Shown one piece after another: positions 43,942 to 50,412 of a stretch of 64,000 nucleotides of DNA. A model generated the notes under the pieces. It did not search any database and had not been told where the DNA came from. It saw only the letters and a program-made list of their open reading frames with translations. The translations under genes and the position numbers were made by a program. Source of the stretch: an uncultured Colwellia sp. Its GTDB lineage: Bacteria; Pseudomonadota; Gammaproteobacteria; Enterobacterales; Alteromonadaceae. Numbering within the stretch: position 1 is the stretch's first letter; every line of letters starts with the position of its first letter. The stretch spans positions 48,975 through 112,974 of the forward strand of contig CBDHCJ010000002.1 in assembly GCA_965261045.1 (NCBI GenBank), read 5' to 3'.

Positions 43942-44023
43942 AATAATTAGATGTTTTTTAATAGTTTAATTGCCTTGCAGTATATCATAAACCCTCACTT
44001 AGTGATTGTTAACTCGATACTAA

Positions 44024-44067
44024 TAGCAGGAGACCTTTGCAAAGCTCTTTGCAAAGGTCTCCTGCTA
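44024..44067. terminator. 44-bp near-perfect palindrome downstream of the autotransporter
   Basis: tagcaggagacctttgcaaag-ct-ctttgcaaaggtctcctgcta (21-bp arms). Confidence 0.6.
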
Positions 44068-44113
44068 TATGCCATCAGTGGTGCAGCTAGCTCCCTCTTC
44101 TTCCAAAAAAGCA

Positions 44114-47100
44114 TCAAAAGTGAATTCTGCCCTCTAGCTGGATAGCCTGATCCGCTCCTCGGCTGCCCTCTAGATTGCCACTGCTTTCACGGCGTTCGCC
44201 AAACAGATGCAGATCGAAGCGAGCCGTACCCTGCCAGCGTATGCCCAGACGATAGCTATTGATAGTGCCTAGGGTTATTTCGCTGTAAGGGGTTAGCAAG
44301 CCAACTAGGCTGGGGGCAAGCAGCCCATAGCTTAGCCTTGCACCTAGGCGTGCGTCGTAGTCTGGTGCGCTATAGTCCACCGCACTGTTGTGCAGGTTGG
44401 ATTGGGGTAGGCTCTGTTGCCATAGGGCGCTGGTATCGCTACTACTCCCGTTATAGCCATAGCCTGGTCTTAGACTGAATGCCAGACCAAGCTTATCAGT
44501 GCCTGGATCTAGGCTGATCAAAGCCTGAATGCCCCATTCTTTATAGTTACCCTGTCCAACTAGGGCATGCAGGTTGCCTTCTAGCGTTAGGCCAGTCAGG
44601 TTGGCGTAGCGCATACCTGCCCCGAGCACTGTGCCAGTGCCGCTGTCACCATCATAGCGGGCACCTATTTCCAGCATGGGCTTGATGCTGCCACCGGATG
44701 CCAGTGTGTATTGCCCAGCTATTTCTAGCAGGAGTCTAAACCGTTGGCTGTCGATGGTTTGTTTGGCGATATTCATATCGGCTGCTGCGTTGATGTCGGT
44801 ACGCGCTAGCAATAGGTCGCTTTTGAGGCTTAGGCCAGATATAAGCTGCCCTTTGATGCCCGCCGCCAGAGATAGAAGGTTGGTGTCAGTGCTGTGGCTG
44901 TTGTCTTCTTGCTTGATGGTTAGATCACCCTGACCATAGCCTAGGCTGCCCCACAGGTTGGCGCGGGCGTTGTTCCATGCCAGATAAGGGTGGATACTGG
45001 TCATTTTGTGGTTGTAGCTGCCCTCATCACCTTCTAGGGTATAGTCGACATCGCCTTCGCTCCAGCTTAGCATGCCCCCCAGCAGTAGGTTATCTAAGCG
45101 CTTATCAAGGCCCAGTTGGTAGCTGCTTAGATCACCTTGCCAGTCAAGATCTGAGTCGTTTTCGCTTAGGCGGGTGTAATCACCACTGCCCCATAGCGCC
45201 AGTCCTGTGTTCGCAGCACTTGCTTGATCAGCACCTGTTTGGTCAGCACTGTTCAGTGGGATCAGGAAAGAGGAGTTAGTTAACAGCTGTTTCCAGTTTA
45301 TGTTGCCGTCTTTGTGGGAGCGGGTATAGCCAGCGAGTTTTTGTAGCAGATCAGCGGTCAGTTTTTCGGTTGTTGTGGTTTCGCTGTCAAATTGTATTTG
45401 ATAACCATCAAGCTGATAGCTTGCCGTTGTTTCTGCTGATGCAAAGGCACTGTCGACACGACGCTCTACCGAGGCGGCGCTGCTAGCGACTAGTGCTTGA
45501 GTCAGACGCGGCATAATGGCTAGGTTTAGCCGTTGGATATCTTCTTCGCTAAGCCCATCAGCTAATACGGTGATGCTGAAGGTCAAGCTGGCCGTATCCG
45601 TGGCGGCGGTGTTGGTGTCGCTATCGGCTGCTATGTAGGTGTAGCTAGTGCTGGCGGTCTCCGCCTCTGGTGTACCGCTGATGGTGCGACGGGTGGTGTC
45701 AAAGGTTAGACCCTGTGGCAGGATCGGGCTTAGGCTGTAGGTTAGGGCGCCATTACCACCAGTGGCCTTGGGTAAGGTGAGCACTGGGATAGCTGTGCCA
45801 GCGGTGTAGGTGTAGGACTTGTTAGCAATCGCGGTAATCGCAGCAGAGCCGAAACTCGGTGCTGTGTCTAGCGTGATGATAACAGCATCGGTTGCGTCTG
45901 ATGTATTGTCGGTGGCATCGGTTGCGGTTGCGGTGAATGTGTTGGCGCCATCATCTAGCGTTACAGCAAGCGACCAGCGAGTACCGGTTACACTTGCGGC
46001 ACCAATGGATGTTCCATCTTTGAGTACATCAACCGTGGCCCCAGCATCAACGATGCCAGCAAGGGTAAATGATGCTGTGTTGACCGTTTGTGCTGTGGTG
46101 CTAATGGCGACTGTCGGTGCGGCAGTGTCTAACGTGATGTTAACCGCAGCAGTTGCGTCTGATCTATTGCCAGTGGCATCGCTTGCGGTTGCGGTGAATG
46201 CGTTGGCGCCATCAGTCAGTGTTACGGCAAACGTCCAGCCAGTACCCGATACGATTGCGGCACCAATGGACGTGCCTCCCTTGAGTACATCAACCGTGGA
46301 ACCCGCCTCAGTGGTGCCTTCAAGGGTAAATGATGCGTCTTTGACCGTTTGTGGTGTGGTGGTGGTAATGGTTATTGTCGGTGCGGCAGTGTCTAACGTG
46401 ATGTTAACCGCAGCGGTTGCGTCTGATGTGTTACCTGCCACATCGCTTGCGGTTGCGGTGAATGTGTTGGCGCCATCAGTCAGTGTTACGGCAAACGTCC
46501 AGCCAGTACCCGATACGATTGCGGCACCAATGGACGTGCCATCTTTGAGTACATCAACCGTGGCATCCGCCTCAATGGTAACGGTGCCAGTAAGCGTCAA
46601 TGATGCGTCTTTGACCGTTTGTGCTGTGGTAGTAATCGCGACTGTCGGTGCGGCAGTGTCTAACGTGATGTTAACCGCAGCGGTTGCGTCTGATGTGTTA
46701 CCTGCCACATCGCTTGCGGTTGCGGTGAATACGTTGGCGCCATCAGTCAGTGTTACGGCAAACGTCCAGCCAGTACCCGATACGATTGCCGCACCAATGG
46801 AAGTGCCGTCTTTGAGTACATCAACCATAGCACCCGCCTCAACGGTAACGGTGCCTTCAAGGGTAAATGATGCTTCGTTGACCGTTTGTGCTGTGGTGGT
46901 AATGGCGACTGTCGGTGCATCACTATCCAGCGTGACGGTAACCGCAGCAGTTGGGGCTGACTTGTTCATTGCCACATCACTTGCGGTTGCGGTGAATACG
47001 TTGGCGCCATCAGTCAGTGTTACGACTTTCGACCAAGTACCACCCGACACGATTGCCGCACCAATGGAATTGCCGTCTTTGAGTACATCAACCATAGCAC

Positions 47101-50019
47101 CCGCCTCAACGGTAACGGTGCCTTCAAGGGTAAATGATGCTTCGTTGACCGTTTGTGCTGTGGTGGTAATGGCGACTGTCGGTGCATCACTATCCAGCGT
47201 GACGGTAACCGCAGCGGTTGCGTCTGATCTATTGCCAGTGGCATCGCTTGCGGTTGCGGTGAATACGTTGGCGCCATCAGTCAGTGTTACAGCAAGCGAC
47301 CAAGTACCACCCGATACGCTTGCCGCACCAATGGAAGTGCCATCTTTGAGTACATCAACCATAGCACCCGCCTCAACGGTAACGGTGCCTTCAAGGGTAA
47401 ATGATGCTTCATTGACCGTTTGTGCTGTGGTGGTAATGGCGACTGTCGGTGCATCACTATCCAGCGTGACGGTAACCGCAGCGGTTGCGTCTGATGTATT
47501 GTCGGTGGCATCGGTTGCGGTTGCGGTGAATACGTTGGCGCCATCAGTCAATGTTACGACTTTCGACCAAGTACCACCCGATACGATTGCCGCACCAATG
47601 GAATTGCCGTCTTTGAGTACATCAACCATAGCACCCGCCTCAACGGTAACGGTGCCTTCAAGGGTAAATGATGCTTCGTTGACCGTTTGTGCTGTGGTGG
47701 TAATGGCGACTGTCGGTGCATCACTATCCAGCGTGACGGTAACCGCAGCGGTTGGGGCTGATGTATTGTCGGTGGCATCGGTTGCGGTTGCGGTGAATAC
47801 GTTGGCGCCATCAGTCAATGTTACGACTTTCGACCAAGTACCACCCGATACGCTTGCGGCACCAATGGAATTGCCATCTTTGAGTACATCAACCGTGGCA
47901 TCCGCCTCAGTGGTGCCTTCAAGGGTAAATGATGCTTCGTTGACCGTTTGTGCTGTGGTGGTAATGGCGACTGTCGGTGCATCACTATCCAGCGTGACGG
48001 TAACCGCAGCGGTTGCGTCTGATGTATTGTCGGTGGCATCGGTTGCGGTTGCGGTGAATACGTTGGCGCCATCAGTCAGTGTTACAGCAAGCGACCAAGT
48101 ACCACCCGATACGCTTGCGGCACCAATGGAAGTGCCATCTTTGAGTACATCAACCATAGCACCCGCCTCAACGGTAACGGTGCCTTCAAGGGTAAATGAT
48201 GCTTCGTTGACCGTTTGTGCTGTGGTGGTAATGGCGACTGTCGGTGCATCACTATCCAGCGTGACGGTAACCGCAGCGGTTGCGTCTGATGTATTGTCGG
48301 TGGCATCGGTTGCGGTTGCGGTGAATACGTTGGCGCCATCAGTCAATGTTACGACTTTCGACCAAGTACCACCCGATACGATTGCCGCACCAATGGATGT
48401 GCCATCTTTGAGTACATCAACCATAGCACCCGCCTCAACGGTAACGGTGCCTTCAAGGGTAAATGATGCTTCGTTGACCGTTTGTGCTGTGGTGGTAATG
48501 GCGACTGTCGGTGCATCACTATCCAGCGTGACGGTAACCGCAGCGGTTGGGGCTGACTTGTTCATTGCCACATCACTTGCGGTTGCGGTGAATGCGTTGG
48601 CGCCATCAGTCAGTGTTACGACTTTCGACCAAGTACCACCCGATACGATTGCGGCACCAATGGAAGTGCCATCTTTGAGTACATCAACCGTGGCATCCGC
48701 CTCAATGGTAACGGTGCCTTCAAGGGTAAATGATGCTTCGTTGACCGTTTGTGGTGTGGTGGTAATGGCGACTGTCGGTGCATCACTATCCAGCGTGACG
48801 GTAACCGCAGCGGTTGCGTCTGATCTATTGCCAGTGGCATCGGTTGCGGTTGCGGTGAATACGTTGGCGCCATCAGTCAATGTTACGACTTTCGACCAAG
48901 TACCACCAGATACGCTTGCCGCACCAATGGAAGTGCCATCTTTGAGTACATCAACCATAGCACCCGCCTCAACGGTAACGGTGCCTTCAAGGGTAAATGA
49001 TGCTTCGTTGACCGTTTTTGCTGTGGTGCTAATGGCGACTGTCGGTGCTGTGGTGTCAACTACGTTTACAGTTCGAGTTGCTGTTGCTTGGTTCGTGCCA
49101 TCGGTTGCTGTGTAGGTAATGGTGTATGTGCCTACAACATCCATAAATGCAGATGAATCAATGGTTACCGTAGAGCCATCATCAGTTGTTGCGCCAAGCT
49201 CGGTGTAACCTGCACCCAACTCAATAGTTTGTGGGGTTGCACCGTTCAGGGTGATGATTGGTGCTGTGGTGTCCGATGCTGCATTAACAGTGATGGTGAT
49301 GGTGACCTCGGAGCTGCCTCCGGGATTGCTAGCTCTGATGGTGTAAATCTCCGCACTAGCGGACATCGTTGGTGTGCCAGAGATGGAACCAGTCCTGCTA
49401 ATATAGGACAGACCGGTGTTCTCAGTCAAAGTTTTACCATTCACGCCCGTGAGACTGAAGCCGGTAATGGATGTACCACCGCTATTGGTAATGGTGATGG
49501 GGTTAGTTGTAACGGGGATGCCTACGGTGAAGGTCAGCATATTGTGGTTGACGCTGATGTTGGGAGCAGACACTCCTGGCTGAACGGATAGGGTGAAATG
49601 GGCGTTATCGCTACCAGCGTCATTGGTAGCCGTGATTGTGTATCTGATACTACCACTGCTCGTCGATGGCGTGCCCGAGATGGTGCCCGTGTTGGGGTCA
49701 ATAGACAGTCCCGCTGGCAGGTTTGGGCTGATACTGTAGGTGGCTGTACCACCGCTATTGGTAATGGTGACGGGGCTAATGGCAGTGCCCGCGTTGGCGT
49801 TCAGGAAGCTGGGACTGGGGAACGCGGGAAGGTCGGGAACCGCCTGTTGAGCATCCTCTTGAGCATTTACTGGCAGAGAAAAAGCCAGACTTAAAATAAG
49901 GAGAGGGAGAGTGTTTTTGTAATTACAAAGATTGGCTAAAAACTGCCAGAATCGCGGGGGGGGGGGGGGGGAGTAACTACATGATTATTAAGCATTTTTA
50001 TTGAAAGCGATGATTTCAT
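44114..50019 (-). CDS. Giant autotransporter adhesin (putative-Ig domains, 12 Big_3-like repeats, C-terminal beta-barrel); frameshifted at a C16 tract, likely phase-variable and OFF
   Basis: ATG at 50019 with aggggat RBS; long frame stays open from the tract to 44114; signal peptide LLILSLAFSLPVNA-QE lies upstream of the track start 49573; beta-barrel ends LEGRIHF. Confidence 0.88.
45869..49057 (-). repeat. Twelve tandem Ig-like repeat units (9 x 267 bp, 2 x 261 bp, 1 x 264 bp)
   Basis: D(S/T)(D/A/T)APTVAITTT...VTLTDGAN.FTATA units; lengths sum to the 3189-bp span. Confidence 0.92.
49956..49971. repeat. G16 (C16 on coding strand) homopolymer in the autotransporter N-terminus
   Basis: 16 consecutive G; 14 or 17 would restore the frame. 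Confidence 0.9.
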
Positions 50020-50278
50020 TTGGAATATCCCCTAATTTTCTCTAGTTTGATGGGTTATTTACACGACTTATTTTGCGGAGTGTGTGTTGTATTTATTACT
50101 TGAATCCAGCAACACCTCACCGATAGCGTTACTATAGTATAGCTCATTGAAAATTGATAGATTGATAGATTGAAAATCCCACTCACTGAATGCTTGATTG
50201 GATGTGATCAACAAACTATTCACTATGTTTGCTAACAAGAAATGCTTGCTCATACAAGTATTTCTACCAGCCAAATAT

Positions 50279-50332
50279 ATATACTCATAATACTTCAAAA
50301 TATCTGCTTCAGGACATCTGAGCAACTCATGA
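50279..50332 (+). mobile_element. Truncated ERIC-like MITE end (copy B)
   Basis: 50/54 identity with 3361..3414. Confidence 0.65.
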
Positions 50333-50412
50333 TCAAGACGCATTTTTTTATTAATGGTTATGCACTTCAAGCTTGAGTCTGTCAGATAAAAAACTGTAAA
50401 GTATTAAAAAAG

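Follow-up and report, generated by a model that had tools for sequence, protein, structure and literature searches.

A putative poly-C slippage switch in the leader of an acquired autotransporter adhesin gene of an uncultured Colwellia

The stretch of DNA analysed here (the window, 64,000 nt) comes from an uncultured Colwellia, the genome of which comprises 3.18 Mb in two contigs (C1 and C2) with 38.7% GC. The window carries on its minus strand a gene for a long putative adhesin with a run of cytosines close to its 5′ end. Locus coordinates are window positions throughout, and the features are collected in Table 1. On direct reading, a Shine-Dalgarno-like AGGGGA lies 8 nt upstream of an ATG (50019-50017). 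This ATG opens a frame of 16 codons followed by exactly 16 C, and past the tract the frame continues as PPPPPRDSGSF until a TAG ends the peptide at 27 residues. The body of the gene is found in another frame, which starts directly after a TAA-TAA pair (approximately 49987) and extends over 1956 codons. The earliest ATG, GTG or TTG in this long frame is GTG 49573, and none of these codons occurs in it between the tract and the signal-peptide cleavage site. The long frame reads ...SPPPPPRFWQFLANLCNYKNTLPLLILSLAFSLPVNA and then QED, with a hydrophobic core and an AXA-type cleavage site before QED. The interval from 50019 to 49573 measures 446 nt, which equals 2 mod 3, so that the frames on the two sides of the tract are one base apart; if joined, they would give a product of 1968 aa. 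The 1956-codon body contains no further stop or frameshift and has 53% GC. The run is preceded by C-T in the window gene (gttaCTC16), compared with gttaC11 in the closest paralogue. A sequence-only reading of this DNA had reported the ATG with its ribosome-binding site (RBS), the 16 C and the early TAG, and all of these numbers are correct; the offset, the one-base frame difference and the fusion of about 1968 aa that it had given were recomputed with the same result. It had also stated that the open reading frame (ORF) track misses the N-terminus, and the first start codon of the long frame indeed lies behind both leader and signal peptide. The public gene call at this locus (P0001) is 1808 aa long and begins at an internal Met, so that leader, signal peptide and first He_PIG domain are all absent from it. 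In other assemblies, too, homologues are shortened or split at their tracts.

Domain searches and structure prediction support a divergent autotransporter with an immunoglobulin (Ig)-like repeat passenger, that is, a predicted surface adhesin of approximately 1970 aa. The C-terminal 500 aa match NCBIfam TIGR01414 (autotrans_barl) with 21.5 bits at a curated cutoff of 16 (E 1e-4), and the match spans residues 53-334 of this piece (window 44615-45460). Pfam PF03797 (Autotransporter) does not match the C-terminus of the window copy; it does match 11 of 18 aligned relatives of the C-terminal domain, with a best E of 3.7e-14. The AlphaFold2 (AF2) model of the last 400 aa, outside of which the linker helix lies, is all-beta with up to 18 strands according to DSSP, at a predicted local distance difference test (pLDDT) value of 71 and a predicted template modelling (pTM) score of 0.66. 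Foldseek ranks the BrkA beta-domain first for this model (3qq2, E 8e-6), with low TM scores of 0.32/0.45. EstA, EspP and Hbp are also on the Foldseek list, and the BtuB, OccK and BamA barrels score similarly. The protein ends in ...QLEGRIHF, and all 18 aligned relatives have a terminal F or W. With the family match above its cutoff, the PF03797 matches among the relatives and BrkA as the top structural match, the autotransporter assignment made by the sequence-only reading is upheld. Searches of PDB sequences with the C-terminal domain and with its profile returned nothing meaningful. The passenger contains He_PIG, Bact_surface_Ig-like and 12 Ca_tandemer/Big_13-type units. The latter were found as 12 stretches by NCBIfam NF033510 (Ca_tandemer, E 2e-71) and coincide with the 12 tandem 267-nt repeats. 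Judged from sequence features, the signal peptide is LPLLILSLAFSLPVNA, cleaved before QE and preceded by a basic/polar stretch. Only an in-frame tract joins it to the ATG, as in the paralogue C1:2065450. An ESPR leader (PF13018) was considered and rejected, since Pfam at E values up to 10 gave no match in the N-terminus of this intact paralogue; the leader is long, but appears from this search to be of another type.

The gene differs from its surroundings in composition, with 53.4% GC and a GC content at third codon positions (GC3) of 0.51, compared with 35-39% GC in the flanks and a GC3 of 0.27 in the adjoining gene for RNase R (rnr). The RNase R is 90% identical to Colwellia proteins, in agreement with the Colwelliaceae-like host that had been proposed from the letters alone. 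In three related marine metagenome-assembled genomes (MAGs) and in Candidatus (Ca.) Colwellia aromaticivorans, the interval upstream of rnr is occupied by GGDEF (GGDEF/DUF484), HD-GYP and Sel1-repeat genes; this interval is bounded by erpA only where the compared contigs extend that far. Here the adhesin gene replaces those three genes (window 43942-50412 compared with loci L062-L065). Leader and beta-domain were found in none of 54 other genomes of the genus. The related-locus search, with an alignment of six closer sequences, covered 185,579 species genomes and found only five other carriers, all of them sponge-associated MAGs: three of Ca. Spongiihabitans, one of Ca. Poriferihabitaceae and one gammaproteobacterium. 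Both the GC contrast and the three other genes present at the site in relatives bear out the earlier claim of a GC-rich acquired gene, and together with the distribution of carriers these comparisons show that the gene is of foreign origin.

Eight genes in the genome share the beta-domain at 96-100% identity, and five of them have the same leader, here called the MKSS leader. The 5′ cassette of the window gene is 77-96% identical at the DNA level to those at C1:275298, C1:2241711, C1:2230326 and C1:2065397. For the 110 nt preceding the tract we obtained full-length matches of 98-100% identity in the Ca. Spongiihabitans loci L035, L047 and L053, and shorter matches of 87-97% identity in other sponge-symbiont loci. 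The leader peptide is of the type MKSS.. IK.LNNH.V in all 13 leader copies compared. The sequence-only reading had proposed that leader and signal peptide form one N-terminus, and had suggested looking for homologues with tracts of varying length. The intact paralogue C1:2065450 establishes the first point: it encodes MKSSCTIKILNNHTVTPPHNTQALWQSLVNLCSYKTLFLLILSLAFSLPASSVSA in one frame of 3465 aa that begins at the ATG and runs on across leader and signal peptide, and since it reads through the same leader, the fused N-terminal architecture is proven. Its tract is C7 followed by non-repeat sequence and appears to have decayed. As for tract length, the paralogues and four other genomes display 0 to 21 C at one leader site, with full-length flank matches that are 90-100% identical. 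The states are none, interrupted, C6, C7, C8, C11, C14, C16 (twice) and C21; the sponge-symbiont copies have nothing, an interrupted run, C6, C14, C16 or C21. Four copies read through in frame, with a tract that is short (C7), interrupted or absent, and all six MKSS-type copies with an uninterrupted tract of at least 8 are out of frame. Some leader copies need a shift of +1 to restore the frame and others a shift of -1. More distant sponge-symbiont homologues with other leaders also have a tract at the gene start, in frame at C9 and C10 and out of frame at C9 and C14. In a homologue from Ca. Spongiihabitans OZ242212.1, a G12 is located approximately 105 nt upstream of the ATG and not inside the leader (L024 2384-2395, L037 6179-6190), a candidate promoter-level variant of the same theme.

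Upstream of the window gene, the motif TATACTATAGTAAC contains a -10-like TATACT. Variants of it are found at the same relative position upstream of five other paralogues of the family, namely four MKSS genes and the C1:67k gene, and it may act as a promoter. A separate observation concerns an element of about 30 nt, gttgctggattcaagtaataaat(a/g)ca, that is inserted in the upstream cassette of the window gene (window 50060-50110). The element recurs upstream of another autotransporter gene (C1:67155-67209) and of the G15 lipoprotein gene (C2:273375-273407).

Across the whole 3.18-Mb genome, G/C runs of 6, 7, 8 and 9 nt occur 158, 28, 6 and 0 times, which corresponds to approximately five-fold fewer per added base. 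Nevertheless, 14 runs of 10-20 nt were observed, where 0.39 would be expected. The homopolymer spectrum is thus bimodal for G/C, whereas A/T runs have no such tail. Each of the 14 long runs lies within the first ~140 codons of a gene for a predicted secreted or surface protein (Table 1). When the C8 paralogue is included (n = 15), the tract genes divide into five in frame and ten out of frame; the split is close to the 1:2 expected and so fits free-running tracts. Loss of mismatch repair was considered as a cause of the tracts and rejected, as the reading frames of MutS and MutL look intact by motifs and ORF length. The largest group of tract genes consists of seven giant paralogues with poly-Gly segments, three in frame and four out. 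Their N-terminus is MNILNG(T/S)TNGT..., followed by PKD/Ig-like repeats and a C-terminus ending in ...QVLVDQDMIRDGAIL, and their Pfam/NCBIfam matches are weak. They do not have an N-terminal signal peptide, and type I-like secretion would be a guess.

Table 1. Features of the adhesin locus (window positions) and other tract-bearing genes of the genome (contig positions).
Feature	Position	Strand	Basis	Tract and frame
Conserved 5′ cassette: upstream region, RBS, leader, tract site, signal peptide	49840-50083	minus	DNA identity to four paralogues and to loci of Ca. Spongiihabitans and Poriferihabitaceae	
TATACTATAGTAAC motif with -10-like TATACT, ~120 nt upstream of ATG	50128-50141	minus	motif scan of genome	
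Shine-Dalgarno-like AGGGGA	50028-50033	minus	direct reading	
ATG and conserved 16-residue leader MKSSLSIKMLNNHVVT	49972-50019	minus	direct reading; leader comparison	
Poly-C tract encoding poly-Pro; proposed frame switch of this MKSS-leader autotransporter	49956-49971	minus	direct reading, homopolymer count	C16 (G16 on plus strand)
TAG closing the ATG frame	49936-49938	minus	direct reading	assembled (OFF) state
Remaining extended signal peptide, long frame, RFWQFLANLCNYKNTLPLLILSLAFSLPVNA; predicted cleavage between VNA and QE	49862-49955	minus	sequence features	
Passenger: He_PIG, Bact_surface_Ig-like, Ca_tandemer/Big_13/Big_6 Ig-like repeats	45617-49861	minus	Pfam, NCBIfam	
12 tandem copies of a 267-nt (89-aa) repeat, 91% alike	45870-49048	minus	Tandem Repeats Finder, score 4642	
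C-terminal linker and predicted outer-membrane beta-barrel translocator, ends ...EGRIHF	44117-45616	minus	TIGR01414, AF2 model, Foldseek	
Long-frame stop codon	44114-44116	minus	direct reading	
MKSS-leader autotransporter with long tract	C1:275408			C11
Third MKSS-leader autotransporter (counted beside the 14 long runs)				C8
Another autotransporter gene				C18
Seven giant paralogues, 2000-2750 aa	C1:320912, 1052533, 1294799, 2146095, 2374162, 2713198; C2:246459			poly-G of 12-20 nt, poly-Gly at residues 122-139
Secreted endonuclease I with PKD domain	C1:1570592			G10 directly after signal peptide; out of frame
Lipoprotein	C2:273217			G15 before lipobox; out of frame
Exported protein M-T-Y-(P)n	C2:368475			C11; out of frame
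Lipoprotein	C1:2438646			(AP)n linker ending in C12; in frame

We read the locus as a horizontally acquired autotransporter adhesin gene that is switched by slippage of its poly-C tract and is OFF at the assembled C16, with a rough probability of 0.72. The tract sits between the sole start codon and the body of the gene, so that a change of its length would toggle translation. The earlier proposal of a contingency locus gains support from the 0-21 C at the same leader site and from the 13 further 5′ tracts, which are partly in and partly out of frame. In the mechanism that we propose, the protein would consist of an extended Sec signal peptide, a passenger of Ig-like, calcium-stabilised repeats and a divergent C-terminal beta-barrel. 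The tract, placed in the N-terminal extension of the signal peptide between the 16-residue leader and the hydrophobic core, would gate expression. Slipped-strand mispairing during replication would alter tract length, and only 14, 17 or 20 C would join the ATG to the 1956-codon body; at 16 C, translation would stop after 27 residues and no adhesin would be made. Since CCC stands for proline in every frame and the tract would be removed with the signal peptide, changes of length should cost the mature protein nothing. The window gene is one of at least 14 tract loci, which points to combinatorial surface display in a population, and cells of one population would show different combinations of surface proteins. 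The frame shifts needed by the leader copies go in both directions, which argues for random slippage and not for programmed recoding; programmed frameshifting was rejected as the principal explanation because the paralogues require opposite shifts. We infer a useful rate of switching, its reversibility in this organism and a true modal length of 16.

Several observations weigh against this reading. The length of 16 C is taken from the assembly. The comparisons of length are between paralogues and horizontally shared copies and not between clonal descendants, and a second strain with an orthologous locus was not found among the 54 genomes of the same genus, by an exact-protein look-up of the neighbouring ErpA or by pattern scans of Joint Genome Institute (JGI) metagenomes. 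The first of these scans was empty, and the second gave three chance matches, none of them a leader. A contig from ENA (L009, 98% identical) was examined as an orthologue and rejected; it represents another paralogue type with its 5′ end cut off. The flank had no match in the plasmid collection. A simple promoter scan upstream of the ATG recognised no canonical sigma-70 promoter. The probability that all six long-tract MKSS copies are out of frame is (2/3)^6 = 0.09; decay or a systematic error of the consensus might lie behind this. Finally, MAGs of related sponge holobionts were assembled with metaMDBG from PacBio HiFi reads, some of which came from ultra-low-input libraries amplified by polymerase chain reaction (PCR) (PMC12988363); these are comparable MAGs and not necessarily this genome.

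The last two points bear on the possibility that the tract is real and its assembled length is off by one. Most cells would in that case express the gene from an intact frame and its OFF state would be an artefact, although the tract itself would remain hypermutable. A long-read consensus is least reliable at long homopolymers, and ten of the 15 tract genes being out of frame could be taken as a trace of it. However, one-base slips cannot yield 8 to 21 C at one leader site in five independent assemblies, nor can a consensus error account for shifts in both directions. The ON:OFF ratio of 5:10 is that of free-running tracts and not of in-frame genes with occasional errors, and the assembler resolved tracts of 18, 19 and 20 nt elsewhere in the genome. 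We consider such an error unlikely as an explanation of the locus. An error of one base at the 16-mer is possible, and it would alter the state of the locus but not its nature.

Decay offers a different explanation, in which a redundant adhesin paralogue was inactivated at a mutable tract without regulatory role and is heading for loss. Some copies do show such damage. In the neighbouring paralogue C1:2241764 the tract is interrupted and the signal peptide contains another break of the frame, L049 and L052 no longer have a tract and are not in frame, and B_2146k is shortened to 1093 aa. The sequence-only reading had moreover listed several degraded genes in the same window. For C1:2241764, L049 and L052, decay is a real alternative. 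The window gene itself shows no lesion besides the frame at the tract; its 1956-codon body is free of any other stop or shift, and its leader, RBS and signal peptide are undamaged, with 96% identity to those of a paralogue. Furthermore, many copies from several species have kept long uninterrupted tracts, which neutral decay would soon break up. We therefore regard a decaying pseudogene as highly unlikely here. Least probable of all is a rescue without any change of DNA, in which RNA-polymerase slippage or ribosomal frameshifting on the C run gives constitutive low expression at any tract length: it is established that polymerases slip on long homopolymers and that +1 frameshifts occur at CCC-C proline codons, and five or more CCC codons offer many chances for either event, but the copies need opposite shifts, no conserved stimulator element is evident, and such a rescue would turn OFF into a leaky OFF without replacing the DNA switch. 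Under the slippage switch that we favour, the OFF state may be leaky by either of these routes.

The relationship between the Colwellia gene and its counterparts in other sponge-associated bacteria depends on the part of the gene. Leaders and passenger blocks share 90-100% DNA identity across lineages, with up to 97% for passenger blocks of Colwellia and Ca. Spongiihabitans. The beta-barrel domains are only 46-51% identical between lineages (the eight loci of this genome compared with L025-L058), whereas they are 93-100% identical among the eight Colwellia paralogues and 96-99% among five Poriferihabitaceae paralogues. This pattern suggests that concerted evolution homogenises the translocator within each genome, and that heads and switch cassettes are exchanged between co-resident bacteria. 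It is tempting, if still tentative, to see the upstream region, leader, poly-C tract, signal peptide and passenger blocks as a mobile module that passes among distant sponge-associated bacteria and is grafted onto the barrels of each recipient. If so, the holobiont would share one pool of phase-variable adhesin heads, each presented via a host-matched translocator.

The closest known systems are NalP and MspA (AusI) of Neisseria meningitidis, autotransporters of type Va with an intragenic poly-C tract that varies from 6 to 15 nt among isolates and with ON lengths confirmed by immunoblot (PMC3723659). As in the window gene, the tract lies in the 5′ coding region and every third length is ON, and these two proteins confirm what the sequence-only reading had said of slipped-strand switching of autotransporters in pathogens (PMC3723659). 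NalP and MspA have serine-protease passengers and are single genes of a human commensal and pathogen; the window gene, known from its sequence, encodes instead a giant Ig-repeat adhesin with the tract in the signal-peptide extension, is from a family in which at least three paralogues carry the tract, and belongs to a marine Colwellia. The mechanism is thus already known, and the setting is new. Within the library searched, we found no paper that links such switching to sponge symbionts or to Colwellia.

Similar arrangements exist in other multigene families. In Neisseria opa and in Helicobacter pylori sabA, oipA and hopZ, the repeats are found in the region coding for the signal peptide. There, and on our reading here too, the repeat is confined to leader or signal peptide and leaves the mature protein as it is, and the members of the family switch independently, so that the surface varies in a combinatorial way. 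These genes for outer-membrane proteins use CTCTT pentamers or CT dinucleotides and encode small beta-barrels, whereas a homopolymer and an autotransporter are involved here. The Pmp family of Chlamydia pneumoniae, an obligate intracellular pathogen, is likewise a large family of autotransporter paralogues with poly-G tracts, at which several members are frame-shifted. We know of no shared mobile leader cassette for this family. Campylobacter is not known to have mismatch repair and has vertebrate hosts, whereas the MutS and MutL frames look intact here and the host is probably a sponge. According to two reports on Campylobacter jejuni/coli, autotransporter genes (capA and relatives) and a poly-G/C phasome occur in these species, with both decay and phase variation described (PMC7168839, PMC8355987). 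The genomes resemble ours in being AT-rich with otherwise rare G/C runs, and a few dozen long poly-G/C tracts mark genes for surface structures, including autotransporters.

Repeat-driven phase variation is a textbook feature of vertebrate pathogens, where it is viewed as a response to adaptive immunity and transmission bottlenecks. Colwellia is mainly known as a genus of free-living heterotrophs from cold water, and this genome displays the full signature: a bimodal homopolymer spectrum, more than 12 surface-protein genes with 5′ tracts, a mixture of ON and OFF states, and multigene families. Adhesin genes with tracts are moreover common to Colwellia and uncultivated sponge symbionts. Because gene callers shorten or split such genes (1808 aa compared with ~1970 here), the annotation of adhesin repertoires in symbiont MAGs is systematically wrong. 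The variation may be driven by phagocytosis by sponge cells, by phage or by competition for attachment sites. Confirmation of the switching would make stochastic variation of the cell surface a general strategy among bacteria that live in animals without adaptive immunity.

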